From assembly GCA_944389515.1 (NCBI GenBank), contig CALXMQ010000002.1, forward strand, positions 71,094-135,093: 64,000 nt of DNA, read 5' to 3'. The DNA comes from an uncultured Alphaproteobacteria bacterium (GTDB lineage: Bacteria > Pseudomonadota > Alphaproteobacteria > Rs-D84). The position numbers were made by a program, and so were the translations under genes. Shown here piece after piece: positions 6,234-64,000 of this stretch. Position 1 is the first letter of the stretch. The number at the start of each line of letters is the position of its first letter. The notes under the pieces were generated by a model that searched no databases, was not told where the DNA came from, and saw only the letters and a list, made by a program, of their open reading frames with translations.

Positions 6234-7118
6234 TTATGAATTATTATTCACCAATTTGTCCACCAATTCTTGCATCTGGGTACGGGTGGCGAATTCTAAG
6301 ACAATCTGCCCTGCCCCACCACGACGTTCGTGCAACTTTGCCGTTACCCCCAATGCGTTATGCAATTTTGATTCAATTTCACGCACTGTGGCGGCATCTA
6401 TGGTTTTTGACGTGTATGCGCGACTGGTCTTTTTACGCGCGGTTCCACGAACAATTTTTTCTGTTTCTGCCACTGATAAATTATTATCAACAATTTGATG
6501 TGCCAAGGCTGTTGGATTTTCTGCAACTGCGATTGTGCGCGCATGTGATGCAGATAAATCACCATGTTCCACCATTTGTTTTACATCTGATGGCAATGTA
6601 TCCAACCGCATAATATTTCTGATATAACTTTCCGATTTGCCAATTAAACGCGCAACATCAGACAATTCATATCCGCATTTTTCCATTATATTTTTATACG
6701 CATTTGATTCTTCTATGGGATTCAAATTTTCACGTTGCACATTTTCAATCAATGCAATTTCCATCGCATTTTCAGGCGTAATTTGTTTCACCAATGCTGG
6801 TATTTCTGTCAACCCTGCTAATTTACTGGCACGAAAACGACGTTCACCGGCAACAATTTCATATAAATAAGGACGTCCAGTTACACTGCGCAGTAAAATA
6901 GGTTGCAACACGCCCTTTTCTTTTATAGACGCCGCCAAATCAGACAATTCAGATTCTGTAAATGTTTTGCGCGGCTGATCCGGATTCGCCCCAATTTGTG
7001 CCAATGGAATATGTTTAACAACCACACGTTCGGCACCTGTCAATATCGATATATCTGGGATATTACCCATTTCTTGTTTCAAATCTGCCAAACCGCGGCC
7101 TAAACCAAATTTAGACAT
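6234..7118 (-). CDS. parB: chromosome partitioning protein ParB
   Basis: GLGRGLADL N-terminus, HTH and ParB box. Confidence 0.9.
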   Translation of the reverse strand: MSKFGLGRGLADLKQEMGNIPDISILTGAERVVVKHIPLAQIGANPDQPRKTFTESELSDLAASIKEKGVLQPILLRSVTGRPYLYEIVAGERRFRASKLAGLTEIPALVKQITPENAMEIALIENVQRENLNPIEESNAYKNIMEKCGYELSDVARLIGKSESYIRNIMRLDTLPSDVKQMVEHGDLSASHARTIAVAENPTALAHQIVDNNLSVAETEKIVRGTARKKTSRAYTSKTIDAATVREIESKLHNALGVTAKLHERRGGAGQIVLEFATRTQMQELVDKLVNNNS

Positions 7119-7120
7119 GA

Positions 7121-7894
7121 TTATTCCCCTTTTTCTAAACGTTCAACAACCTCGGTTGCAACACGTAAATATGCCTGGGCGCCTGTTGAATTAAAATCAT
7201 AAAATAATGCAGGCTTGCCATGGCTGGGTGCTTCGGATACACGAACATTACGTGGTATTACTGTTTTGAAAACAGCATCCCCAAATGTATTTCGAACATC
7301 TGCTTCCGCGTCACGTGTTTGACCATACCGTTTATCATACATTGTCAATAAAACCCCTAATATCTCTAATTCAGGATTCCATTTTTGACGAATTCCCCGG
7401 ATATTACCGACCAGGTGTGTTATACCTTCTAATGCGTAAAATTCGCATTGTAACGGAATTATAACATTGTTCGCCGTTGTCAATGCGTTCAATGTTAAAA
7501 AACCCAACGCTGGTGGACAATCTAATAAAATATAATCATAAAATTCATACAACGGCGCCAAAGCATCGCGCAAACGATATTCACGATTTTCCATATCCAA
7601 CAAATCAACTTCGGCCCCAGACAATGCAATCGACGACGGCATTATATGCAACCCTGGTATCGCCGTAGACAACACATTATCCGCCGCATTGGCCGTTCCC
7701 ATAATAACACCATAAACACTTTGCGGATGAGACGCACGAACAAAACCCAACCCAGTCCCCGCATTACCCTGGGGATCCAGGTCAACCAACAAAACACGTT
7801 TTTTTATCGTCGCCAAAGACGCAGCCAAATTGATGGCAGTTGTGGTTTTACCCACACCGCCCTTTTGATTCGCAAATGCAATTATCTGTACCAT
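7121..7894 (-). CDS. parA: chromosome partitioning ATPase ParA/Soj
   Basis: Deviant Walker A KGGVGKTT. 257 aa. Confidence 0.9.
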   Translation of the reverse strand: MVQIIAFANQKGGVGKTTTAINLAASLATIKKRVLLVDLDPQGNAGTGLGFVRASHPQSVYGVIMGTANAADNVLSTAIPGLHIMPSSIALSGAEVDLLDMENREYRLRDALAPLYEFYDYILLDCPPALGFLTLNALTTANNVIIPLQCEFYALEGITHLVGNIRGIRQKWNPELEILGVLLTMYDKRYGQTRDAEADVRNTFGDAVFKTVIPRNVRVSEAPSHGKPALFYDFNSTGAQAYLRVATEVVERLEKGE

Positions 7895-8017
7895 TTAATT
7901 CCTTTCCAACATAATATAACATTTATTACAACAAAAAACATAGAATAAAACCACCGATTCGGTCAAGCCAATATATTTCAACAAATTAAAAATCAAATAA
8001 AAACAATATATTATACT

Positions 8018-8129
8018 TTATTTCATATGAAATAAAAATATAACACACCACGTATTACACCCGGTATTTTTAACACAAAGTTAAAAACAACGAAATATCA
8101 ACGAATTACATAATATTTCATATGAAATT
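8018..8129. promoter_or_regulatory. two parS-like palindromes (TATTTCATATGAAATA at 8018-8033 and TATTTCATATGAAATT at 8114-8129) in the rsmG-parA spacer
   Basis: 12 of 16 positions match the canonical parS TGTTTCACGTGAAACA. Perfect dyad symmetry. Located upstream of parAB. Confidence 0.35.
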
Positions 8130-8685
8130 ACCGGCATTTTTGTATAATTATTATAAAACCATCGCCGGTTTTTGACGGTATCAATTCATAATCAAATTTA
8201 TATTTCTGTTTTGCCACGGATATTTCTGCCGGTATTTCCCGGCCTTTTAATAAAAAAAGCCGGTGACCCGTTTTGGCAACATAATCCAAAATTTTTACCA
8301 ATGGTGCAAATGCACGTGCGGTAAAAACAATTTTTTCATCACGGGGCAGGGCGGCAATATAATTTTCCACCCGACCATGATATATTGTTAAATTGTCCAG
8401 CTTCAATTCATCACGCACTGCGGTTAAAAAAGCAACCTTTTTACCAATCGATTCGATACATACAACCGGCCACCCCAATATCGCCAAAACAACCCCAGGA
8501 AATCCGGCACCACTGCCCAAATCAACAACATGTGCATCTGGTGGCAAAACATCCGCCAGTTGCGCAGAATCTGCGAAATGGCGTGTTTCGATATCTGCCA
8601 ATGTACTGGGGGCAACCAAATTCATACGCGACGACCAATCGCGTAACATTTCTGCATAACGGTCAAATTTTGCTTTATTATTCAT
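8128..8685 (-). CDS. rsmG: 16S rRNA (guanine527-N7)-methyltransferase RsmG (GidB)
   Basis: SAM-binding motif VVDLGSGAGFPG. Positioned upstream of parAB. Confidence 0.85.
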   Translation of the reverse strand: MNNKAKFDRYAEMLRDWSSRMNLVAPSTLADIETRHFADSAQLADVLPPDAHVVDLGSGAGFPGVVLAILGWPVVCIESIGKKVAFLTAVRDELKLDNLTIYHGRVENYIAALPRDEKIVFTARAFAPLVKILDYVAKTGHRLFLLKGREIPAEISVAKQKYKFDYELIPSKTGDGFIIIIQKCR

Positions 8686-18105: not shown

Positions 18106-18576
18106 TTATTTTTTTCTGTTTTTCCTGAATTCATCCAATGATACAACACGGCCAGTATCTGGGACAGTGCCAGGTTTATCGTCCAATGGCAATTCCATAT
18201 CGTTATCTGCGGCCGCTGGGGCAGAACCACGCGGATGAAATGACAACATAAAATCAACGGATGGATCTTTGAATTCAACCAATGCGGAAAAAGGCACACG
18301 AATAAAAAATGGGCGGCCATCAAAAGTCAGTTGAACACCAAATTCTTTGTCTGATACATGTAAATTGTTATACGAATACTGTAACACAATCGTCATAATA
18401 TCAGGATATCGTATACGCAAAAAATCCGGCAATACAACACCAGGTGCACGTGTTTTGAACGTTATGTAAAAATGTGCCCCATCACCCAGTCCGTTAAATT
18501 GTGCATGAATCAATGCTTCTTTGACAACAGACTTTAACGCATTATCCAGTAATGTTTGATAATCAATCTTGCTCAT
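18106..18576 (-). CDS. sspB: ClpXP adaptor SspB-like protein (alpha-type)
   Basis: 156 aa. The N-terminal domain resembles the SspB fold family, and the acidic tail ends in a basic C-terminus (RKNRKK) that looks like an XB-type ClpX-binding tail. Assignment by recall, not alignment. Confidence 0.45.
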   Translation of the reverse strand: MSKIDYQTLLDNALKSVVKEALIHAQFNGLGDGAHFYITFKTRAPGVVLPDFLRIRYPDIMTIVLQYSYNNLHVSDKEFGVQLTFDGRPFFIRVPFSALVEFKDPSVDFMLSFHPRGSAPAAADNDMELPLDDKPGTVPDTGRVVSLDEFRKNRKK

Positions 18577-19760
18577 ATTTCTTGTCCTGGCACCAGTATA
18601 TTATTTATTTCACCATTGATGCAAGTAACAAATACTGCATTTGGGACGTTTGCAAATACATTTGCATCTAAACCAGTTGCCCAAACCTGGGCATCAGCCG
18701 CATCCAGTTCATGAAACAGTCGTGCACGCGCATCAGCATCCAGATGTGCGGCGGCTTCGTCCAATAATATCAAAGGCTGATGATTTGTTTTGGCATGAAT
18801 CAATTTTGCATGCGCCAGTATTAAATCTAATAATACCATTTTTTGTTGACCAGTACTGGTCAACGCAGCAGGCAAGTTCAGTTTATGGTTAAACACACCA
18901 AAATCTGATTTATGTGGCCCGTCCAAAACCATTTTATCACCAATCAATTCACGCGCAGACAATAAATATTCTAAATATTTGCGTTCTGCCGCCGCAGACG
19001 CCATGCCATCTATCAACATTTGTTCAACAGTGCCAGATACAGTTACCGCACAATCAGATAAAAAATAATTTAATTGCCCAGCATATTGAACACGTGCCGT
19101 GGCAACAGATGTCGCAACCCCAGCAATTTGTGTATCCAGCGCACCCAACCAATTTTCATCGCGTCCATTTTTTAATGCGAACGCACGTTCCGCCAGTAAT
19201 TTTGATAATCTGGCAACGCGACCGGCATGCGCCGAATCAAAACTGGCGGTCAATCTGTCAAAAAAAGCACGACGTTCAGATGCCGCATCTATAAACAATC
19301 TGTCTTCACGTGGGGTTACCCATACCGTACGTAAATGCGTTCCTAAATCATTTAATGTGGCGGCGTCACCATCAATACGTGCACGGCGATTTGTATCACC
19401 AGGTGCAAAATTCACTGATATTTCAGTATCGTCATTTAACGCCGCAAATACAGAAAAACCACCATTGCCATCAAAACGTGCAATATCAGACATCGCCGCA
19501 CCACGTAAACCACGTTCACCAGACAGCATGGATACCGCTTCTAATACAGCGGTTTTACCCGCGCCATTTGGCCCAGTAATAATAACATTATGTCGACCAT
19601 ACGTTTGAATACGACATGATTTATGATTACGAAAATCAGTCAAAGTAATTGTTTTTATCATGGCACGATAATACACCCAGCCCAGAAAAAAAACAACATG
19701 TTGTTCATATTTTGGTCCGCCCAATTTAACCGGACAAATATGATGCAAAACAAAAAACAC
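18573..19760 (-). CDS. recF: DNA replication and repair protein RecF
   Basis: Walker A GPNGAGKT, and an SMC-like C-terminal signature. Confidence 0.85.
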   Translation of the reverse strand: MFFVLHHICPVKLGGPKYEQHVVFFLGWVYYRAMIKTITLTDFRNHKSCRIQTYGRHNVIITGPNGAGKTAVLEAVSMLSGERGLRGAAMSDIARFDGNGGFSVFAALNDDTEISVNFAPGDTNRRARIDGDAATLNDLGTHLRTVWVTPREDRLFIDAASERRAFFDRLTASFDSAHAGRVARLSKLLAERAFALKNGRDENWLGALDTQIAGVATSVATARVQYAGQLNYFLSDCAVTVSGTVEQMLIDGMASAAAERKYLEYLLSARELIGDKMVLDGPHKSDFGVFNHKLNLPAALTSTGQQKMVLLDLILAHAKLIHAKTNHQPLILLDEAAAHLDADARARLFHELDAADAQVWATGLDANVFANVPNAVFVTCINGEINNILVPGQEI

Positions 19761-34843: not shown

Positions 34844-35245
34844 TTACCAACCAGTTGTCAAATTCTGGCAACCAAAATTTTCACCATTACTTAAAAATCC
34901 CAATAATATTCCGATTGAAAACAATAACGCAAATCCGATAATCATTGGAACACCGATTGACTTTAACCCTTCGGTTACACTGTCTTTGCCAGCAATCTTG
35001 CCAGACGTTATTGCGTCCCAACCATATTTTGCCAATATAAATCCAGCACCAACAAATGCCAATGTTCGCAGTAATTTGAACACTTCTTGGAATCGCGCAA
35101 TCATGTCACACAATCCACTGTTCATTGCTGGGGCTGCAAATGCCGGGACAACCAATACGGCTGAAACACACGCAAAAATTACAGTATATAATCCAACGTT
35201 TTTTTTCGGTTGTTTTATTTTTACAGAATTATTGATTTTCCGCAT
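34844..35245 (-). CDS. VirB2/TrbC-like type IV secretion pilin (orphan)
   Basis: 133 aa. Long signal peptide ending AFAAPA, then two hydrophobic segments separated by a short polar loop, and a G-rich C-terminus. Consistent with the TrbC/VirB2 architecture. Confidence 0.45.
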   Translation of the reverse strand: MRKINNSVKIKQPKKNVGLYTVIFACVSAVLVVPAFAAPAMNSGLCDMIARFQEVFKLLRTLAFVGAGFILAKYGWDAITSGKIAGKDSVTEGLKSIGVPMIIGFALLFSIGILLGFLSNGENFGCQNLTTGW

Positions 35246-49095: not shown

Positions 49096-49776
49096 ATGTC
49101 ATACATGTGGGACGAATTCAATATAAAAACCTTTGACGCGGAAACAGTTGTTTATCGCGATGGTGTGTTTTGCCCGGAATTATCAACAATCGTTGGTACT
49201 GATTTTTATGAAAAATATAACAAGCCTGTTCATATCATATATGTTGGTGAAATTGCCGGTGAAAACCGGTTAAATGTGAATATTTTTGCACAAAACCAAC
49301 CAATATTTTTGTCTGCACGTATAAAAAATAAAAAGCCGGCCTTTTTGAACATTTTTATCAAAAATGCCGGGAAAAATTCTGAATTTCGTGGCCATGTTAT
49401 GTTGGAAAATTTTAACGATGTAAAATTTAATTGTGTGGCAAATCATGTTGTGTCTGACACAACAATTTTAGTTAAAACAAAATTATTGGCAGAAAGAAAT
49501 AGTATTTCAAAATTATCGGGTACCGCAATTATTGATAAAAATTGCAATGGTGTAATATCTGATATTGGATTTTCGGCATTGGCCGATAAAACTGCAAGAA
49601 TTGAATTTATGCCGGCACAACGTATATCCGCGGTGCCAGCATCGGCCGAACACAGCGCATCTATTTATCAACCAACATTATCACAAATTGAATATCTGCA
49701 CGGTGCAGGATTGTCGCACATGGAAACCGATACCGCATTACGCGAAGCGTTTATGAACGATTTTTCTTTGTTTTAA
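49096..49776 (+). CDS. hypothetical protein with a SufB/SufD-like beta-helix C-terminus (possible gene remnant)
   Basis: The C-terminal half (…PTLSQIEYLHGAGLSHMETDTALREAF) resembles the SufBD C-terminal consensus. At 226 aa it is about half the size of SufD. Confidence 0.3.
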   Translation: MSYMWDEFNIKTFDAETVVYRDGVFCPELSTIVGTDFYEKYNKPVHIIYVGEIAGENRLNVNIFAQNQPIFLSARIKNKKPAFLNIFIKNAGKNSEFRGHVMLENFNDVKFNCVANHVVSDTTILVKTKLLAERNSISKLSGTAIIDKNCNGVISDIGFSALADKTARIEFMPAQRISAVPASAEHSASIYQPTLSQIEYLHGAGLSHMETDTALREAFMNDFSLF

Positions 49777-49783
49777 TATTTAA

Positions 49784-50695
49784 TCAACGTGTATAAGTTT
49801 TATTATTCAATTTAGGCATATTGATATTAGATTTATTGGTTGAATATCTGTCGCATAGTTTTTCAACCTTGTCATCAAAACGTGATAATCTGTCACGATA
49901 ATATGCAATCCAACGTCGACCAAAATGTTCAGATGTTTCATTTTGACGCGCAGGAATATATGAAATTTCACGCATACATTTTTCCCAATCAGATTTTGTA
50001 GCGTTTTTTTCAATAAAATCTAAATAATCCGCGATTACATCAACCAGTTGTTTTCCACGACTGTTTTTTATATTACCACCAGCAGATAAAAATGCCTGAA
50101 TTCCAGCAAGATTGGCATACATTTCATCTTCGACCATTGTATATCCAACCCATTTCATTTTTTCAAAAATGTCACTGGGGGCATTTGGGTTCGGCATGGT
50201 GCGAATATATGCCCGGGTTCTTTGCGACATAGTATATTTTTTATTTATCCGTTTACGACGCCGAATAAAATCAAGCAAAGAAAAATCAAATTTATAATGA
50301 CCAGCAGCCAATTCCCGGGACTTGCGATATGCATGTGTCAATTCATGTGTCAAAATTTCAGCCATCATTTGTCGGTCGATAAAAACATTATCACCATCAA
50401 CACGCACAGGCATATTTATATTTAATTCCAGTTTGATTTTGCCATCACGTAATGAATTACCATTTATAAAAAATGCATCGGCAAATTCTTGGGCATGACC
50501 ATTATCATATTGTTCAGGGGTCAGTCTGTAAAAACAAAAAAATACACGTGATGCATCATCACGAATAAATTCAGGCGCCATCATTGCCGCATCAGTTGAA
50601 GGAATACGATATTTTGTTTCATATTTATCTGTTTTTTCAGATTTATATTTATTTATATATTTATCAATAACAGATAAAATATCCCCAGATTTCAT
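49784..50695 (-). CDS. hypothetical protein with HExxH metallopeptidase-like motif
   Basis: 303 aa, no signal peptide. The only recognisable feature is AEILTHELTHAYR. Confidence 0.35.
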   Translation of the reverse strand: MKSGDILSVIDKYINKYKSEKTDKYETKYRIPSTDAAMMAPEFIRDDASRVFFCFYRLTPEQYDNGHAQEFADAFFINGNSLRDGKIKLELNINMPVRVDGDNVFIDRQMMAEILTHELTHAYRKSRELAAGHYKFDFSLLDFIRRRKRINKKYTMSQRTRAYIRTMPNPNAPSDIFEKMKWVGYTMVEDEMYANLAGIQAFLSAGGNIKNSRGKQLVDVIADYLDFIEKNATKSDWEKCMREISYIPARQNETSEHFGRRWIAYYRDRLSRFDDKVEKLCDRYSTNKSNINMPKLNNKTYTR

Positions 50696-50749: not shown

Positions 50750-50884
50750 TTATTTTTTTCTGAAACCCTGTTTAGCCTTTAACTTTGGGTTATTCGGGTC
50801 AATCAGGATTACCTGTTTACCACGGCGAATTTGTTTTACATTACCGCGTTTTTTCCAGGCCTTTAATGAACTTAAAAACTTCAT
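50750..50884 (-). CDS. rpmJ: 50S ribosomal protein L36, zinc-independent paralogue type (44 aa; below the ORF-track cutoff)
   Basis: Manual translation gives MKFLSSLKAWKKRGNVKQIRRGKQVILIDPNNPKLKAKQGFRKK, which matches the non-Cys L36 form (MKVLxSLK...RRGxxxVICxNPxxKQxQG). Terminator hairpin at 50715-50740. Confidence 0.75.
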   Translation of the reverse strand: MKFLSSLKAWKKRGNVKQIRRGKQVILIDPNNPKLKAKQGFRKK

Positions 50885-50974
50885 ATCTGTATCCTTTGTT
50901 GTGTGGCTATTATAAACGGTTTTTGTGAAAAATCAAATAATAAATAAATATTTGTTGTTGTAATAGGGGCTGTT

Positions 50975-51170
50975 TGTTTTGTTGAAAATTGTTTTTGACT
51001 TTTTATCAACAAGTTTTCAACAATTTTTTGCCGGATTTTAGGGAGTTTTTACACATTTGTTGAAAAATATAGGTGTTTAATAAACAGTTGAAAAATATAT
51101 ATGTTTTTAACAATTTTAACAATTTTTTGAAAACGCTTTTTATACTTGTTGAAAACTGTTGAAATTGTTA
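50975..51170 (+). promoter_or_regulatory. array of at least 6 direct TTGTTGAAAA(A)T repeats plus one inverted copy upstream of virB3
   Basis: Direct copies at 50979, 51056, 51085, 51147 and 51157. Inverted copy ttttcaacaa at 51015. Degenerate ttttaacaatttt copies at 51107-51126. Confidence 0.5.
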
Positions 51171-51502
51171 TAATTCAAGCAAGCAAGGGGGGATTGTATC
51201 CAAAAATGCGACAACAAGTGTTAAAAGCATTGGCAAATCCAGCGCGTATTTTTTACGTGCCTTATTCACTGGCGGTGATAAATTTTGCAGTGCAATTTAT
51301 TGTTTTTATTGTTGTTTTTATAATTGGATTGATTATTTACGGGGCAGATTCTTGGATAAATCCTTTGTATTTTTTAATATCTGTGATTGTGGTTCATATG
51401 ATATTGGCGTTTTTTGCAAAACGTGAACCACAACTGGGACAGATTATATCGGCAAAAATACAACTGATTAAAAAAAAGATACCGGGGCGATTGGCGGCAT
51501 AA
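51146..51502 (+). CDS. virB3: type IV secretion system protein VirB3
   Basis: LKALANPARIFYVPYSLAVINF matches the VirB3 core (FKGLTRPAMIxGVPYxYFxLNF), followed by a TM helix. True start may be the internal ATG at 51206. Confidence 0.7.
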   Translation: MLKTVEIVIIQASKGGLYPKMRQQVLKALANPARIFYVPYSLAVINFAVQFIVFIVVFIIGLIIYGADSWINPLYFLISVIVVHMILAFFAKREPQLGQIISAKIQLIKKKIPGRLAA

Positions 51503-51505
51503 AAT

Positions 51506-53920
51506 ATGAACGGATTTTTTGAACATTTTGCAGGCGGTGAATTTCCAATTACCACAATAATCTTGGTAATGATTGTTGTGTTTGTGTTTATTGTTTTAAT
51601 GATGTATATCCCAGCATTGACACGTAAAATATTTCCTAAATTTGGGTATGTGCGGTATTCGCAATATTTGCCGTTCAAAAATGTTTATACAGATAATTCA
51701 ATAACTTTGACAGATGGGTCGATTATTCGCGTGTATCGCGTGGCAGGTGTTCAAACCAGTATGCAAGATGATGATGCACGTGCTAAATTTTTAGATTTAC
51801 GTTCGCAATTATTTAATCAAATACGTGACCCAAATGTGGTTATCAGATTTTATACTGTGCGTGATGCGGTTGGTGAAAATACAAATTACGAATTTGACCA
51901 GCCCGTATTACAAAAAATTTATAATAAATGGAAATCTCAGGGATTACGTATTTTTACAAATAATTATTATATTGTGTTATCTGTTGGTGGGGCAAATGCA
52001 CGTGAAAAATTAAATCAATATGGTAATTATATTGAATCTATATTGGCGGCATACAGACCCAGTGTATTGCGTAATGATGCGTCTGATAATATGGCAAAAT
52101 TCTTTGGACGTATATTGTCACCAATTACCAAGCCGGCACCAATGGTTTGCGACCAAAATATCAGTGATGTTACAACAGTTGATGATGTTGAATTTATGGA
52201 TAATGGAATAATTCGGTATACTGGTGATGGACGTCAATCATTTGCAGCAGCAATTTCGTTCAAAATGTCACCTGATTATTTAGACGAAGATTTCTTTAAT
52301 GCGATATACACAATTCAAACAGAAATGATTTGCATGAATGCGTTTAGAATAATGGGCGCAGCAGATATTGAATCTGTGTTACGGCAACGTCGTGCAACAG
52401 CCGAAGAAAAAGAAACGTCTGCAACAGAACAAATCAGTGCGGCGGAATCTGCGATGGATGAAAATATTTCTGGAAATCAGAATCTGGTAAATTATTATCC
52501 GTTGTTTTTAATATTTGGTGCCAGTGTTCAAGAATTAGAACAATATATTGATGAATTTAACAAGATTGCTGCATCGTATGGGGTATCACCGATTGTGGAA
52601 TCTTTTGCATCACGTGTGTCTTGGTTTGCACAAATTCCTGGGTTTGATGTTTTTCCGCGCAGTTTCAAAATGTTGTCACGTACTGCGGCGGTCAGTATCC
52701 CGATGTCCAGCACACCACGTGGTGTTGCAAATTGTGATTGGGGCCCGGGGCCATTGGTTATTTTCCCAACTGCCCAGGGTACACCATATCAATTTCAATT
52801 TCATGTATCTGACAAACCAGCCGCAGTGGCACATACTTTGACCATCGGGCCAACAGGCGGTGGTAAAACGACTTTGTTCAGTTTCTTGATTGCGCAATCT
52901 TTGCGACATAAGAAATTAAAAGCGTTTTTCTTTGATAGAAACAAGGGTGCAGAAATTTTCACTTTGTCAGTTGGTGGCAAATATGTGACGATGGTTGGTA
53001 AAGACAAAGATAAAAAAGCGGATTCTTTTCAAACACACTTAAATCCATTAAAAATGTCTGATACCCCAGATAATCGCGCATTTTTGCGGCGGTGGTTTGC
53101 AATGATTACTGGGAACAGTGATGCAAATTCGGCTGATGAAATTGCACGTGCGGTATCGGTAAATTTTGATTATTTACAACAAAATGACAGATTATTAAAA
53201 AATTTATGGGAAAGTTGTTTTTCATCTGTGGGTAATATGAGGCCGGCATTGAAAAAGTGGGTCGACCCGTTACAATATGGTGATATATTTAATGAAGATT
53301 CTGATACGTTGGATTTGAATTCACGTCTGACCACATTTGATTTTACAGATATATTACAAGATGAAACATTGGCGCCGGCTGTGATATCGTATATTTTACA
53401 CAGAATAAATAATGATACTGTGTCGGGAGGTAATCCATCGTTGATTATGATTGATGAAACAGCGCCAATGCTGGAAAATAAAATGTTCCGTGACAGTTTT
53501 ATAACGGGATTGCAAGAAGGGCGTAAAAATCGCCAGGCGTATATGGTTGCATTTCAACGGGCAAATGTTTTGGATAAATTGGGGATTGGTGATGTTGTTC
53601 GTGGCCAGGCGCAAACAGTGCTGTTTTTCCGTAATCCGGCGGCCGATGTGTCGGATTATCAATATTGGAATTTGAATCCATTGGAAATGGCATTTATTCA
53701 GGGCAAGGCATATCCGAATCTGAAACGCGCAGTTTTGTTATCACGGCCGGTTACTGGTGAATCTGTGATTTTGAATACTGAATTGGGTGGTTTGGGTAAT
53801 TTGTTGCGATTGTTTGAATCTGGGCGTTCGTCGGTATTATTGGCCGAAGAATTATATGCACAATATGGAAATAACTTTGTCGCAGAATATTTGAAAAAGC
53901 AAGGGGCAGGCGATTTATAA
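51506..53920 (+). CDS. virB4: type IV secretion system ATPase VirB4
   Basis: 804 aa. N-terminal TM, Walker A GPTGGGKTT, and the CagE/TrbE/VirB4 layout. Confidence 0.9.
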   Translation: MNGFFEHFAGGEFPITTIILVMIVVFVFIVLMMYIPALTRKIFPKFGYVRYSQYLPFKNVYTDNSITLTDGSIIRVYRVAGVQTSMQDDDARAKFLDLRSQLFNQIRDPNVVIRFYTVRDAVGENTNYEFDQPVLQKIYNKWKSQGLRIFTNNYYIVLSVGGANAREKLNQYGNYIESILAAYRPSVLRNDASDNMAKFFGRILSPITKPAPMVCDQNISDVTTVDDVEFMDNGIIRYTGDGRQSFAAAISFKMSPDYLDEDFFNAIYTIQTEMICMNAFRIMGAADIESVLRQRRATAEEKETSATEQISAAESAMDENISGNQNLVNYYPLFLIFGASVQELEQYIDEFNKIAASYGVSPIVESFASRVSWFAQIPGFDVFPRSFKMLSRTAAVSIPMSSTPRGVANCDWGPGPLVIFPTAQGTPYQFQFHVSDKPAAVAHTLTIGPTGGGKTTLFSFLIAQSLRHKKLKAFFFDRNKGAEIFTLSVGGKYVTMVGKDKDKKADSFQTHLNPLKMSDTPDNRAFLRRWFAMITGNSDANSADEIARAVSVNFDYLQQNDRLLKNLWESCFSSVGNMRPALKKWVDPLQYGDIFNEDSDTLDLNSRLTTFDFTDILQDETLAPAVISYILHRINNDTVSGGNPSLIMIDETAPMLENKMFRDSFITGLQEGRKNRQAYMVAFQRANVLDKLGIGDVVRGQAQTVLFFRNPAADVSDYQYWNLNPLEMAFIQGKAYPNLKRAVLLSRPVTGESVILNTELGGLGNLLRLFESGRSSVLLAEELYAQYGNNFVAEYLKKQGAGDL

Positions 53921-53923
53921 AAT

Positions 53924-54544
53924 ATGAAATTTGTAAAAATTTTATGTTTTATTACTTGTTTTATTCCGTGTATTGCACGGGCCAATGATGATTGTTTGCC
54001 ATATAAATTAAAACCAAGTGTTATGTTGGATACACCAACGTGGTCAAAAGAAGTTGTGCAACCGTTGCGTCATATGGATTTGTTACATGGTAATGTTGTT
54101 GCAACAATGGTTGATAATTATGACATTGTGGCTGATATTACAAATATCGAAGATGGATATTGTGTTGCATTAAAATCTGTGTATGCGACGGTTGGGTATA
54201 CTGATTTTTTGGTTCAAATTGATATTCGTCATGTGCCAGAATCATGCACATACAACGCGATTTTATCACACGAAGACGAACATATTCGTGCTTATTTGTC
54301 TGTGATTGATGATTATAAAAAAGAATTAAAAGATTCTGTATATTCGGCGGCGGATTCTGTTACACCAATTTTTGTACGAAATGCCGCGGATATTGATGCG
54401 GCGATTTCTGAATTAAATGATGAATTACAGGCGCATCCAGATTTAATTTTAGTTAAACAAAAAATCAAAGCAGCCGAAGAAATCCGTAACAAGCGTGTTG
54501 ACCAACATGACACTGGTCAATCGTTGCAGAAATGTTTTGAATAA
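53924..54544 (+). CDS. secreted hypothetical protein with HEDEH motif (DUF922-like Zn-peptidase?)
   Basis: Signal peptide MKFVKILCFITCFIPCIARA. Contains ILSHEDEHIRAY. Translationally coupled to the virB4 stop. Confidence 0.35.
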   Translation: MKFVKILCFITCFIPCIARANDDCLPYKLKPSVMLDTPTWSKEVVQPLRHMDLLHGNVVATMVDNYDIVADITNIEDGYCVALKSVYATVGYTDFLVQIDIRHVPESCTYNAILSHEDEHIRAYLSVIDDYKKELKDSVYSAADSVTPIFVRNAADIDAAISELNDELQAHPDLILVKQKIKAAEEIRNKRVDQHDTGQSLQKCFE

Positions 54545-59665: not shown

Positions 59666-60106
59666 ATGAAAAAAGCATTTGCATTTTGTTCTTTGTTTTT
59701 GGCGTTGTGTGCATGTGGCGGTATGATTAAAAACGAAAATGGCAGCCAATATTTAACACAACTGGACGCGGAACCGATTGGATGCACATTTTTGTATAAA
59801 ATTGAATCAGAAGTATCGGTTTATGATGCTGATGATGCACGTGTGTATTTGGAAAATAGAATTGTTGACCAGGCGCGTCCTGGGAACGCATATTGGATAA
59901 CCAGTCAACGTACACGCCCGAACGAGTGGGTAATATTTGGCCCGGAACGTGCGTTTGTATTGGTCGCAAATGTTTATGATTGTCCACATCCAAACAGTGT
60001 GCGTACCGCCAAAGATGGGGGAACCAGTATTACGGCGACACCTGTGTTGGTTGAACATCAAATAAATTGCAATGACACCATGTATGGTGGTATGGGTGGT
60101 TGTTGA
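59666..60106 (+). CDS. lipoprotein of unknown function
   Basis: Lipobox LALCAC. 146 aa. Confidence 0.5.
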   Translation: MKKAFAFCSLFLALCACGGMIKNENGSQYLTQLDAEPIGCTFLYKIESEVSVYDADDARVYLENRIVDQARPGNAYWITSQRTRPNEWVIFGPERAFVLVANVYDCPHPNSVRTAKDGGTSITATPVLVEHQINCNDTMYGGMGGC

Positions 60107-60230: not shown

Positions 60231-61493
60231 TTGTCAGGCCAAGTTATAACTGTTGACAGGAAAAAATATGCCGTTGGATTGTTTTGGCAACCCACGGGGG
60301 CTGGGTATGTTGCGCGTACGTATGCACGTGCGTTGGCGCGCAGTATTGATAAAAAACTAAATTTATATACTGAATATCGCGCGATGGTGGGATTGGGGTC
60401 TAAACGTGCCGGTCATCGTAGTGGTATGGACAGTGCCGCCGCCGCCATTGCGGATGCATTGGGGGAATTTACATCATTTTTAGCGGTTTTTGCGCTGGAT
60501 AAATCTTTTTATTTGGTTGCGGTTCGTAATGGCGTGATTTTAGAAGATAAGTTGTTTGAACGTGAAGAAGATGCACGTGCAGAATATTTTAAGTTATCTG
60601 AAATCCCAGATTGGGGCGCGTTGTTTGCACCGGGGGCGTGGGGGATGCCACGTGCGGTTGAACGTAATTTACCTGATTTAATCATGCGTACGGCACGTGC
60701 CACTTTGCGACCAATCAGTCGTGCGCGTGCGGTTGTTGTATCAATTATTTTGGTATTGATGTTTGTGGGTGTGTTTTTGTGGTTCTTTCGTGAACCATTG
60801 CGTCAAATGTTTGCACCGCAACCACAGATATCAAATGTTTCGCCTGAAATCGTTGCAGAATATGAACGTCAGGTCGAAGAAAAAAATAAAGAATTGGACG
60901 AACAATTTCAAATTGAACGTGCACCACAGCCGGAACCAATTATATTGCCGTATGAATTTTTACCAAATCCAACAATACGTGCAGAAACATGTTTCCAGGC
61001 AATCGCGTTTTTAATGCAACCTATTACTGGGTGGAGTCAGGTTTCCGCGGAATGTGGTGAAACACATGCCAGTGTTGTATTTAATCGTGATTTTGGCACA
61101 TTAAATGATTTTTATGCGACGGCCACAGAATTGATGCCTGGGTCGTTTGTACAACAAGAATCTGATGATACGTTGTATGTGCGTGCAACATTGCCGGCAG
61201 TGCCGACGTATGCATCATTGGATGAACGTGATGTTGAAACAGTATTACGCGCGGTGTTGAGTGCATTTCAATACGGTGGGATGTCTGTGGATGCGCAAAT
61301 GGTGACAGATACTTTGACCAATGGGGTTGATACAGTAAATCTGGATATAGTAGAAGTTGCGGCAGAATCAAAATTAAATCCAATGCAATTTATGAAGATT
61401 TTTGAAGAATTTGGCGGGGTGTATATGACGCGCTGTGCGTGGGATGCATCAACACGGAACTGGAACTATGAGGTGATAATCTATGCGAAATAA
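60231..61493 (+). CDS. bitopic inner-membrane type IVb pilus assembly protein (BfpC / R64 PilO-like), TTG start
   Basis: 420 aa. About 165 aa cytoplasmic, a single TM (VVVSIILVLMFVGVFLWFF), then about 235 aa periplasmic. Position and topology match bfpC/pilO upstream of the ATPase. Confidence 0.45.
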   Translation: MSGQVITVDRKKYAVGLFWQPTGAGYVARTYARALARSIDKKLNLYTEYRAMVGLGSKRAGHRSGMDSAAAAIADALGEFTSFLAVFALDKSFYLVAVRNGVILEDKLFEREEDARAEYFKLSEIPDWGALFAPGAWGMPRAVERNLPDLIMRTARATLRPISRARAVVVSIILVLMFVGVFLWFFREPLRQMFAPQPQISNVSPEIVAEYERQVEEKNKELDEQFQIERAPQPEPIILPYEFLPNPTIRAETCFQAIAFLMQPITGWSQVSAECGETHASVVFNRDFGTLNDFYATATELMPGSFVQQESDDTLYVRATLPAVPTYASLDERDVETVLRAVLSAFQYGGMSVDAQMVTDTLTNGVDTVNLDIVEVAAESKLNPMQFMKIFEEFGGVYMTRCAWDASTRNWNYEVIIYAK

Positions 61494-62187
61494 AATTATG
61501 TTTTTGTCAGTGTTTATGTTTTCAATGCTGATGTGCGCACCGGCTGAATTGATGGCGGCGACATCTGGGGGGTCGGCGTCCGAGGCAGCAGTTGCCCAAG
61601 ATATCGCCGCAGAAATGGAAGCGGTTTCCGCAGATGCGGTGGCAGCATATGATGCGTCTGGGTCTGTGTTTCAGCAAATTACTGATTTAGAACAAGAAAA
61701 GGTTTTAATGGAACTGGAAAAAGAACGCGCCCAGTTGGATTTAGAATTAGACAGATTGGCGGCTGAAAAAATCAAATTACATATGGAAATTGATGAATTG
61801 TCTGGACGTGCAGAACAACAGCAACAAGAACTGGAAAATGCCCAGGCAAAGTTAGAAGCCGAAGCCGCAAAATTAGAACGTGAAAAAGAAGCCTTGGAAG
61901 CCCAAACAGAAGAATTGGCAACAAAAAAGACGACAAGTGCAACAACAAATAAATCTGATGAAGGTAAGTCGTTTGATTTTGGTGATCAATACAGATTGGT
62001 AAATGTTATTGGGGCTGGTGCCCAATTACAGGCGACAATCGAAAATTTAGCAACAGGGCAAAATAGAACAATCAGTGTTGGCAAGGTTGTTGATGGTTAT
62101 ACAGTTACATCAATATCTTTGGACGAAGGTGTTGTATTTTCTGATGGTAATGATACCCAGACGTTAAATATTACAAAATCAAAATAA
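61483..62187 (+). CDS. periplasmic coiled-coil protein (BfpU/PilP-like by position)
   Basis: Signal peptide. About 90 aa of E/A/L/K heptad coiled coil. C-terminal beta-rich domain. Confidence 0.35.
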   Translation: MRNKIMFLSVFMFSMLMCAPAELMAATSGGSASEAAVAQDIAAEMEAVSADAVAAYDASGSVFQQITDLEQEKVLMELEKERAQLDLELDRLAAEKIKLHMEIDELSGRAEQQQQELENAQAKLEAEAAKLEREKEALEAQTEELATKKTTSATTNKSDEGKSFDFGDQYRLVNVIGAGAQLQATIENLATGQNRTISVGKVVDGYTVTSISLDEGVVFSDGNDTQTLNITKSK

Positions 62188-62198
62188 AGCGGCGGATT

Positions 62199-63836
62199 AT
62201 GAACGAAGCGGAAAACAATATCATAAACAATATACCGGTGGCGTCACGGCCGTCAATTCCAGCAGGATTGGAAACGGCTGATAACAAGGATATTGTAGAT
62301 TATCTGTTTTCAAATGGAAACAGGTTGTTGACCGCAACAGGTGCAGAACAAGAATTACCAAAAGATACCCAGGGTTTAATTGCGTATTTTTCAGGTGGTG
62401 AAATAATTGTTTCGCGTACACATCGTTATGATGGACGTGTGTTGGCTTTTTTGGATTTGTTAAAGAAACGGGCGCTGCCGATGCGTATACCGTTTTATTC
62501 TGATTTGGGTTTGGTTTCCAGTATATACAAGGCATACGAAGGGCGTTTGGGTGGGGTCGCACGTTCGCGTCAGGATTATGACAACCAAATGCAAAAAGAC
62601 TTTGTCGATATTATTGCCAAGGCCGCGGCGCAAAAGGTTTCTGATATTCATATCGAAGTTGCGGACCAAACAACAATTTATTTCCGTATCGATGGCAGTA
62701 TGCAGCCTGTGTTGGAATATAATTCAGGGTGGGGGGAATCTTTTGTTCGTGCGGCGTTTGCATCGTCTGATATGTCAAATGCAAACTATGCGCAAAATGA
62801 ATACCAGGCGGCACAAAAAGATGGGCGTACACCATTACGTGGCACCAAAGATTTATATTTGCCACGTGGTATATTGAGTATTCGTATGCAATTTAATCCA
62901 ATCGCATTTGGCAGTCGTTATGTCGTTATGCGATTGTTATATGATAATCCATCCGAAGGTATAAAAACAGAACAAGAATTTGGTGAATATGAACAAAAAT
63001 TATTGATGCGGTTGCGGTCTTTTCCAACAGGTTTGGTAATTGTTGCCGGTCCCACCAGTTCTGGGAAATCAACCACGTTGGTGCGTAATATGTCTTTGAT
63101 GTTAAAAGAACATCATTATGAAATAAACTTGATAACCGTGGAAGATCCGGTTGAACAAAAAATATTTGGCGCGCATCAAATGCCGGTGGTAAATACAACA
63201 AACGAAGAACAACGTGAAGAAAAGTATACCGAAGCGTTGGCCGCCGCGTTGCGCAGTGACCCTGATACGTTGATGGTGGGGGAAATTCGTACGTTGGCCG
63301 CCGCCCAGTTGACTGTGCGTGGGGCGTTGTCTGGGCATAATGTGTGGACAACATTGCATGCAAATTCTGCAATGTCTGCATTGACGCGATTGCTGGATTT
63401 GGGAATAGAAGCGTTTAAGTTAAAAGAAGAAACATTGATGCGTGGATTGATATCTATGCGTTTGTTCAAAAAGTTATGCCCACATTGTCGTGAACGTTTG
63501 ATTGATCATCCAGAGGCACCTGAATACGGGCGTGTTATGGATGCGTTTGGTGAATTGGGATTACGCCAGGTATATATTCGTGGCGCCGGATGTGAAGAGT
63601 GCAAAGGTACAGGAACGTTGGGGCGTATCAAGGCCGGGGAAATTATTATTACTAACAGTGAATTTTTACGTATGGCGTTGGCCGGAAATACAGATGGGGC
63701 GTATAAGTATTGGTTAGAAGAAATGGATGGACGTACGCTGAAAGAGGCCGCCACAGCATTGATGTTACAGGGTATTATTGGTGTTGATGAACTGGAACGT
63801 TGGGTTGGGCTGTTGGATAGACCGGGGGTATATTGA
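62199..63836 (+). CDS. GspE/PilB-family secretion ATPase (type IVb pilus assembly ATPase, BfpD / R64 PilQ-like)
   Basis: Walker A AGPTSSGKSTT. Asp and His boxes. C-terminal tetracysteine CPHC...CEEC, typical of GspE/PilB/BfpD. Confidence 0.85.
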   Translation: MNEAENNIINNIPVASRPSIPAGLETADNKDIVDYLFSNGNRLLTATGAEQELPKDTQGLIAYFSGGEIIVSRTHRYDGRVLAFLDLLKKRALPMRIPFYSDLGLVSSIYKAYEGRLGGVARSRQDYDNQMQKDFVDIIAKAAAQKVSDIHIEVADQTTIYFRIDGSMQPVLEYNSGWGESFVRAAFASSDMSNANYAQNEYQAAQKDGRTPLRGTKDLYLPRGILSIRMQFNPIAFGSRYVVMRLLYDNPSEGIKTEQEFGEYEQKLLMRLRSFPTGLVIVAGPTSSGKSTTLVRNMSLMLKEHHYEINLITVEDPVEQKIFGAHQMPVVNTTNEEQREEKYTEALAAALRSDPDTLMVGEIRTLAAAQLTVRGALSGHNVWTTLHANSAMSALTRLLDLGIEAFKLKEETLMRGLISMRLFKKLCPHCRERLIDHPEAPEYGRVMDAFGELGLRQVYIRGAGCEECKGTGTLGRIKAGEIIITNSEFLRMALAGNTDGAYKYWLEEMDGRTLKEAATALMLQGIIGVDELERWVGLLDRPGVY

Positions 63837-63837
63837 T

Positions 63838-64000
63838 ATGACAACAAAAATGGATTTATGGTATGCCCGGTTGGTTTTTCGGTTGAATACTGAAAAACGT
63901 ATGGCCACAGCGCGAAAGTTGGCATCACTGTTGCGTAATGATTTTACATTGATGGATGCGCTGGGGCGATTGGAATCAATAGAATCACATGGTGGAACCA
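63838..64000 (+). CDS. GspF/PilC-family polytopic platform protein (BfpE / PilR-like), 5' partial at window end
   Basis: The N-terminus ...TEKRMATARKLASLLRNDFTLMDAL fits the GspF N-domain motif (LATLLxAGLPLxxAL). Overlaps the ATPase stop (TGATATG). Confidence 0.5.
   Translation, partial: MTTKMDLWYARLVFRLNTEKRMATARKLASLLRNDFTLMDALGRLESIESHGGT

Follow-up and report, generated by a model that had tools for sequence, protein, structure and literature searches.

A conserved virB3-virB4 operon with a putatively exported HExxH protein in reduced Alphaproteobacteria of the order Rs-D84

What is a small part of a type IV secretion system (T4SS) doing in the chromosome of a bacterium whose lineage has genomes of less than 1 Mb? 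The question is raised by three adjacent genes, virB3, virB4 and a gene for a 206-residue protein of an unnamed family (here p206), which lie in a stretch of 64,000 nucleotides (nt) from an uncultured alphaproteobacterium of the lineage Rs-D84 (GenBank assembly GCA_944389515.1, contig CALXMQ010000002.1, positions 71,094 to 135,093 of the forward strand; hereafter the window). Candidatus Enterousia and its relatives in the uncultured order Rs-D84 are prevalent gut Alphaproteobacteria with genomes below 1 Mb, about 0.75-1.0 Mb in Enterousia, where the tricarboxylic acid cycle and respiration are missing, glycolysis is incomplete and standard transporters are few; these bacteria are suspected of living at the expense of partners, and a partner-dependent lifestyle has been suggested for Enterousia itself (PMC12306168). 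We found no account of the three-gene module in the literature on Enterousia or Rs-D84 secretion. The module is a real feature, a variant T4SS in an ecologically common, uncharacterised lineage. Our preferred explanation, which taken as a whole we would credit about as readily as doubt, is that it constitutes a vertically inherited core-genome operon of Rs-D84/Candidatus Enterousia that stems from an alphaproteobacterial conjugative T4SS, and that it now acts as a domesticated inner-membrane module with p206 as its periplasmic metallohydrolase accessory. The module and the spacer ahead of it are laid out as follows.

50885..51205, plus strand: rpmJ-virB3 intergenic region, the presumed promoter/operator, with clustered GTTGAAAA repeats
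51206..51502, plus strand: virB3, encoding a small inner-membrane T4SS protein that matches the Pfam VirB3 profile above its gathering score
51506..53920, plus strand: virB4, encoding a T4SS ATPase of 804 amino acids (aa) with a hydrophobic N-terminal segment, matched by PF03135 and TIGR00929 and carrying Walker A and B motifs
53924..54544, plus strand: the gene for p206, a putatively exported, zincin-like HExxH...D protein of 206 aa from an unnamed family, recognised by the family invariants and separated from virB4 by a 3-nt spacer

The first two genes had been named virB3 and virB4 in a first-pass annotation made from the letters of the window, and both identities hold. The virB3 product, 98-118 aa long with a hydrophobic core, matches the Pfam VirB3 profile (PF05101) over residues 23-107 with E=1e-7 and 32.6 bits against a cutoff of 23.9. 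The TTG at 51146 listed as its start is probably wrong and the ATG at 51206 probably the true one; this ATG follows a Shine-Dalgarno sequence (AAGGGGG) located 13 nt upstream and yields a 98-aa product, and the virB3 gene called in a near-identical contig (L082) also encodes 98 aa. VirB4 matches PF03135 (CagE_TrbE_VirB) at 5e-12, with 46.6 bits against a cutoff of 21. It also matches TIGR00929 at 9e-112, and because the score of 374.7 bits lies under that model's own cutoff of 643, we regard the protein as a divergent member of the family. The Walker A motif (GPTGGGKT) stands at residue 448 and the Walker B motif (LIMIDE) at residue 646, and both are intact in all 85 of the 85 orthologs.

The three genes are one operon. 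The stop codon of virB3 precedes the ATG of virB4 by 3 nt, the gap between virB4 and p206 is again 3 nt, as the annotation had it for the latter pair, and the two junctions are identical in sequence (TAAAATATG at 51500-51508 and at 53918-53926). This identity suggests that the same termination-reinitiation coupling acts at each step and that the genes form a single translational unit. Five of the 15 copies of GTTGAAAA in the window cluster within 175 bp of the rpmJ-virB3 spacer (50981-51155), four on the plus strand and one on the minus strand. A shorter motif, GTTGAAA, is enriched in the equivalent spacer of about 300 bp in 75 related genomes, with a median of 4 copies. The repeats look operator-like, as if meant for some regulator, and may have a regulatory role.

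How old is this arrangement? A search of species-representative genomes with p206 as the query gave 112 matches, from which 80 loci were kept, nearly all of them from gut metagenome-assembled genomes labelled Alphaproteobacteria, "uncultured Rickettsiales" or Candidatus Enterousia; one is a chromosome-level assembly of 958,618 bp, labelled circular. Four further, divergent loci were looked up through p206 relatives of 41-51% identity. When the window proteins were compared with the 80 loci by tblastn, the order rpmJ, virB3-virB4-p206 was recovered in 80 of 80 species-level loci, that is, wherever the locus extends far enough. The trio and its wider neighbourhood also recur in the four divergent loci, one of them on a chromosome of 716,531 bp, with topA-dnaG-ychF and a sufD-like gene upstream and DUF374-lpxK-lpxC downstream. 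Relative to the window proteins, identity over the 80 loci is 72-91% for VirB4 and 58-85% for p206, alongside 81-93% for ychF and about 63-88% for the full-length hits of dnaG. Of 72 orthologous loci, 36 have a virB4-p206 spacer of exactly 3 nt and 60 have one between -8 and +22 nt, and HExxH is present in each of the 72 p206 orthologs recovered by a motif script. The flanking abcF, a lipocalin-like gene and a gene for a 303-aa protein (p303) are inverted, moved or absent among the 80 relatives. The GC content of the window ranges from 33 to 44%, and the virB locus forms no compositional island. The conserved synteny, together with that of the wider neighbourhood, indicates that the module is an ancient core feature of the lineage and neither a recent insertion nor a decaying element.

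From what kind of system could the pair have been derived? The closest plasmid-borne VirB4 proteins are encoded on Erythrobacter, Microvirga and Sphingosinicella replicons (32-33% identity over 94-96%, with E values down to about 1e-124), whereas the identity to the window protein drops to about 24% for plasmid VirB4 proteins of the more typical sort. In the two loci examined, those of Erythrobacter and Microvirga, virB2-virB3-virB4 open a full conjugative operon that also holds VirB8, B9, B10, a VirB11-type ATPase, a VirD4-type coupling protein and a MobA/MobL relaxase. Because the closest plasmid relatives sit in complete conjugative operons, an origin of virB3-virB4 from a conjugative element is supported, and the Enterousia pair resembles a piece of one that has been domesticated. 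In the T4SS clade that these plasmids represent (Erythrobacter aureus, Microvirga sp. VF16 and Sphingosinicella; MobA/MobL and a DnaB-like helicase with virB2-B3-B4...B11-D4), virB3 and virB4 stand in the same order, but its members are complete conjugation systems with relaxase and coupling protein, and the genes that follow virB4 there (273, 228 and 251 aa) are not similar to p206.

The canonical VirB/D4 system (MPF_T; virB1-virB11 of the Agrobacterium pTi plasmid) offers a second yardstick. It likewise has virB3 directly 5' of virB4, the ATPase motifs of VirB4, a signal-peptide protein of about 200 aa encoded after virB4 and a small two-helix pilin-like protein. It differs in that the window is without virB1, B5, B6 and B7-B11, and the pilin candidate lies unlinked at a distance of 16 kb, on the opposite strand; the protein encoded after virB4 is unrelated to VirB5, and the window VirB4 is about 24-33% identical to plasmid VirB4 proteins. 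Finally, the Enterousia module belongs to the chromosomal core genes and is no mobile element.

What, then, is the third gene? The annotation described it as a tightly coupled gene for a signal-peptide protein with an HExxH motif, and this description stands: the motif is HEDEH at residues 116-120, and the N-terminal signal-like helix ends in a predicted AxA-type cleavage site after ARA (ARA/N). A large protein collection contains 888 homologs of p206, none of them named and none with a Pfam domain, and among cluster representatives at 50% identity, searched exhaustively, 347 scored E<=0.001; this family of putatively exported HExxH...D proteins was previously unnamed. Over 79 diverse members, ranging down to 17% identity, G56, C80, C108, H116, E117, H120, D193 and C204 are invariant, with C24 and Y110 almost so, as would be expected of an HExxH metal site whose third ligand is an aspartate and of two disulfides. 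In combination with the signal-like segment, this pattern indicates an exported periplasmic protein. The sequence hallmark of zincins, HExxH plus a conserved downstream acidic ligand (D193), is thus found in p206. In the AlphaFold2 model (pLDDT 89), two short strands and a long beta-hairpin (57-75, 78-98) precede a 38-residue helix that bears HExxH, three helices follow, and D193 ends the helix at 172-194.

Known zincin-like families come close to p206 without capturing it. When its relatives were compared with Pfam individually, DUF922 (PF06037) was the commonest weak match (11 of 79, best E=0.0048), followed by eCIS_core/DUF4157 (PF13699; six of 79) and Peptidase_M48 (two of 79). On re-scanning, DUF922 reached at most 15.5 bits in the relatives against a cutoff of 27. 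The sub-threshold matches to DUF922 and eCIS_core in some relatives are colinear; they begin at the strand ahead of HExxH and extend almost to the C-terminus. Both families share with p206 an HExxH helix placed after beta-strands, but with cutoffs of 22-27 bits the matches do not exceed 19, and the p206 family is marked by a four-cysteine pattern and an Asp193 of its own. The hint at DUF922 in the annotation was a reasonable one, but it amounts to a remote, sub-threshold similarity in the relatives, and the window protein itself has no match. We know of no experimentally established substrate for DUF922 or eCIS_core proteins. The family profile, searched against PDB sequences, found nothing, or only helical low-complexity matches to apolipoproteins.

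Two T4SS proteins were tried as distant relatives of p206 and rejected: hhalign gave a probability of 0.1% against VirB5 of pTi15955 and no similarity to Agrobacterium VirB8. Nor is there hhalign similarity to the two genes 3' of virB4 in the Microvirga plasmid, the probability being at most 0.3% over all such comparisons. p206 is thus neither VirB5 nor VirB8, and it is not VirB6 either. The annotation had seen in it a replacement of VirB5/VirB6, which is apt insofar as p206 is unrelated to VirB5; the gene that canonically follows virB4 is virB5, not virB6 (pTi15955), and the VirB5 affinity that the annotation wished to see checked did not materialise.

Three of the related loci hold a paralog of p206 between virB4 and p206 (L072, 8346-8981; L075, 9322-9954; L078, 9354-9992). 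That of L078 has 212 aa, the motif HEQDH and the C-terminal end ...IVID, and a 345-aa gene of no known function is also inserted there. Two distant relatives, P0227 and P0266, are fused to Sel1 and PG_binding_1 domains in opposite domain orders, one C-terminal and one N-terminal, which hints at a peptidoglycan-associated role of the family.

A candidate for the pilin of the system is encoded elsewhere in the window.

34844..35245, minus strand: the gene for p133, a candidate VirB2/TrbC-like pilin, a singleton between nth and pheT, proposed from topology and weak TrbC similarity

The annotation had pointed to this lone gene as VirB2/TrbC-like; its position and topology and a weak similarity at the family level bear this out, whereas the window protein gives no match to Pfam TrbC/VirB2 (PF04956) at E<=1 and so stays outside the curated threshold. 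With 56 homologs, the p133 family shows in alignment a long signal peptide with an A-x-A-type site at its end (AFA/AP), then two hydrophobic helices. The AlphaFold2 model forms a helix-loop-helix hairpin (helices 42-81 and 90-120) after a signal helix at 17-31, so that p133 has the VirB2-type topology of a long signal peptide and two hydrophobic helices joined by a short loop in a mature protein of about 70-90 aa. Eight of 24 family members match Pfam TrbC, the best with E=3.7e-5. An hhalign comparison of the family with seven annotated VirB2/TrbC proteins is weak (probability 19%, E=0.0012) and in register from the end of the signal peptide through both helices, the GLCxxI segment pairing with the NICTFI segment of VirB2. 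Neither Foldseek nor a profile search of PDB turned up a pilin for p133, and a p133 relative compared with plasmids by tblastn had no match there. The gene is not linked to virB3 or virB4, lying 16 kb off on the opposite strand among housekeeping genes, and the same holds in relatives; it is a singleton in four of the four contexts seen, beside pheT in the window and two relatives and elsewhere in the third. From profile and topology taken together, we consider p133 plausible but unproven as a VirB2-like pilin.

VirB2/TrbC pilins are known to undergo head-to-tail peptide cyclisation. In p133, the two termini of the mature protein each have an invariant cysteine nearby, Cys46 and Cys126, and the C-terminus reads ...GC-x5-6-W. 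As pure inference, a Cys46-Cys126 disulfide could tie the two ends together in place of cyclisation.

What could the module be doing? We propose that the inner-membrane energising pair VirB3-VirB4 was retained from a conjugative T4SS, and that VirB4, together with VirB3, may power the assembly of the VirB2-like pilin p133 or of a related envelope conduit. p206 would leave through the Sec pathway, with cleavage at the AxA-type site after ARA, two likely disulfides among Cys24, 80, 108 and 204 would stabilise it, and its HExxH helix and Asp193 would form a metal site of zincin/aspzincin type. It would then serve the VirB4 machine as a periplasmic metallohydrolase, most plausibly in local cell-wall remodelling, canonically the job of VirB1, or alternatively in the processing of pilin or substrate. 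In this picture the identities of VirB3 and VirB4, the operon structure, the deep conservation and the conserved motifs are established, whereas export, metal binding, catalysis, the substrate and any connection with p133 are inferred.

Several results weigh against this proposal. The window p206 itself matches nothing in Pfam or NCBIfam, every Pfam zincin match in its family lies under the gathering score, and Foldseek found no significant match for the model in PDB or BFVD, so that the zincin fold is putative. The peptidoglycan-binding fusions are limited to two remote members, of which P0227 has HEQEQ in place of HExxH. Distant p206 relatives on plasmids have no adjacent T4SS genes, and the sole annotated context outside Rs-D84 is a single gene; the lack of a nearby T4SS there means that the family is not intrinsically a secretion component. 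As to the apparatus, neither VirB6, VirB8-11 nor VirD4 was found in the 64-kb window by Pfam annotation of those open reading frames that were scanned in it or called in near-identical contigs, which otherwise showed housekeeping genes and a type IVb-pilus-like cluster, and a phmmer search of all its open reading frames with pTi VirB1-B11 returned VirB4 alone, plus a generic T2SSE/VirB11 ATPase relationship. Likewise, ten p133 family members scanned individually remained at or below 22.6 bits against the TrbC cutoff of 27.9.

With regard to contexts outside Rs-D84, a Methylorubrum record with a p206 relative carries no annotation. In Microvirga sp. VF16, the 731-kb plasmid pMVF16-3 (NZ_CP069357.1; L088 and L101) bears, at 671-686 kb, a full conjugative T4SS with one of the closest plasmid VirB4 relatives and, at 718.6-719.2 kb, a gene for a distant member of the p206 family; their joint presence about 44 kb apart is probably a coincidence.

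Could p206 instead be a structural subunit, either a stand-in for VirB5 at the pilus tip, as an adhesin, or a periplasmic scaffold whose HExxH...D site holds a structural metal and is not catalytic? It resembles VirB5 in position, size and signal peptide (virB5 of pTi15955 encodes 220 aa and directly follows virB4), its model is elongated, with the 38-residue helix, two more helices and the long beta-hairpin, and its coupling to virB4 is tight and conserved. Nevertheless, hhalign links it neither with VirB5 or VirB8 nor with the genes following virB4 in the closest conjugative relatives (probability at most 0.3%), and Foldseek found nothing significant of any kind in PDB. Moreover, the H-E-x-x-H and D residues are invariant even though the lone annotated context outside Rs-D84 lacks a nearby T4SS, which speaks for chemistry and not for scaffolding. 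We therefore regard a structural p206 as rather unlikely.

A comparably low probability attaches to p206 being a housekeeping periplasmic enzyme with no role in secretion, brought behind virB4 by an accident of operon compaction in a shrinking genome. In larger alphaproteobacterial replicons, distant relatives are found as lone genes outside T4SS loci, which would fit such an enzyme, as would the generally frozen gene order around the module; since the neighbourhood as a whole is frozen, conserved adjacency alone is weak evidence. However, abcF, the lipocalin-like gene, p303 and various insertions do vary or invert in the 80 genomes while virB4 and p206 stay coupled. Duplicated copies of p206 land precisely between virB4 and p206, and the identical TAAAATATG junctions point to a single translational unit.

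It is quite improbable that p206 is cargo, that is, a secreted effector or toxin of the zincin protease type which a VirB4-dependent apparatus delivers to a partner or host. T4SS effectors are usually recruited from the cytoplasm via VirD4, whereas the classical Sec signal peptide and conserved cysteines of p206 fit a resident periplasmic protein. Its identity of 58-85% corresponds to a housekeeping-like rate without the diversification typical of effectors, and no immunity-like gene is conserved next to it in the 80 loci. These points outweigh the weak similarity of six of the 79 relatives to the zincin toxins of eCIS_core/DUF4157 and the proposed dependence of the lineage on partner organisms (PMC12306168). 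That the module is what remains of a decaying integrated conjugative element and has no present function, as could be read from its closest VirB4 relatives on conjugative-type elements with MobA/MobL relaxase and from the presence of just three of about 11 virB genes in the window, is close to refuted and can be considered essentially excluded, given reading frames and catalytic motifs intact in 85 of 85 orthologs, VirB4 identity of 72-91% across species, retention in genomes down to 0.72 Mb and a GC content like that of the surroundings.

How does a domesticated module of this kind compare with other chromosomal T4SSs? The rvh system of Rickettsiales is a T4SS encoded on the chromosome, passed on vertically and distributed over separate loci of a reduced alphaproteobacterial genome; its virB3 and virB4 stand together, and several virB6 paralogs follow virB4. 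The Enterousia module is likewise chromosomal and vertically inherited in a reduced alphaproteobacterial genome, with virB3 and virB4 adjacent, but its virB4 is followed by the gene for the putatively exported HExxH protein and not by virB6 paralogs. The resemblance to rvh drawn in the annotation is therefore an analogy, and the annotation was right that the gene next to virB4 differs.

The closest conceptual parallel is provided by Patescibacteria, where a relaxase-less T4SS with VirB2-like pilins is fixed in the chromosomes of reduced-genome, probably partner-dependent bacteria and a non-conjugative co-option has been proposed (PMC12102498). There, too, a T4SS-derived gene set has become fixed in the chromosome of reduced and probably partner-dependent bacteria. 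The patescibacterial system derives from the monoderm MPF_FATA type and keeps more components near virB4, whereas that of Enterousia is of proteobacterial type, with an HExxH partner, in what is apparently a diderm cell, to judge from lpxC, lpxK and a TolC-type outer-membrane protein that are encoded in the window. The survival of a virB3-virB4 operon through such genome reduction, with its motifs intact, makes it a strong candidate for a lifestyle-defining envelope machine, and the p206 family of putatively exported HExxH...D proteins gains a testable functional context. If the remaining T4SS is truly absent, the apparatus would be an unusually reduced VirB4-based one in a diderm cell; if it lies elsewhere in the genome, Enterousia would have the second scattered chromosomal T4SS after Rickettsiales, with a different accessory gene.

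A bolder picture, and an unlikely one, is a minimal domesticated T4SS-derived machine that does without VirB6-B11 and VirD4. It would consist of VirB3-VirB4, a disulfide-closed VirB2-like pilin and a new periplasmic zincin, perhaps acting together with type IVb-pilus genes, and would mediate attachment to or exchange with gut partner cells, as a diderm counterpart of the patescibacterial T4SS.

A type IVb cluster resembling that of the R64 thin pilus occupies 60231-64000 and runs past the end of the window. It comprises a PilO-like gene (PAP_PilO, 2e-10), a gene for a 234-aa coiled-coil protein with a signal peptide and one for a T2SSE ATPase (4e-65), next to which T2SSF is seen in a near-identical contig. 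In three of the four divergent loci (L097-L099) the cluster comes after DUF374-lpxK-lpxC, a few kb beyond the virB module on its downstream side. Directly 5' of the PilO-like gene, at 59666-60106, is a gene for a probable lipoprotein of 146 aa (signal peptide end LALCAC) with no family match, and L097-L099 have small unannotated genes (104-119 aa) at its position.

On the upstream side, the module is bordered by a ribosomal protein gene, as the annotation had indicated.

50750-50884: rpmJ, identified by its match to the Ribosomal_L36 profile

This match covers the full length with E=8e-5 and, at 23.1 bits, falls just under the cutoff of 26.1. Farther away, parB, parA, gidB (rsmG) and recF are found at 6234-8685 and 18573-19760, 30-45 kb from the virB module; dnaA was not seen within the window. 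Their vicinity suggests that the module may be origin-proximal, which would echo the position near the origin reported for T4SS genes of Patescibacteria.

Between rpmJ and ychF the annotation had placed two further HExxH or remnant proteins. One of them, encoded at 49096-49776, is a stand-alone SufB/SufD-core protein of 226 aa (Pfam SUFBD_core, 3e-6) with no other suf genes nearby, and so does not belong to this class; the SufD-like gene adjoins ychF in nearly all related loci, at 44-79% identity. The other, p303 (49784-50695), does carry an HExxH motif, HELTH, in a cytoplasmic-looking protein of 303 aa without a family match. It occupies this position in a minority of the 80 loci, and divergent copies of 28-34% identity flank the virB module elsewhere (L034, 11105-11938; L073, 1675-2520; L074, 10680-11525), p303 being a variable or mobile accessory gene.

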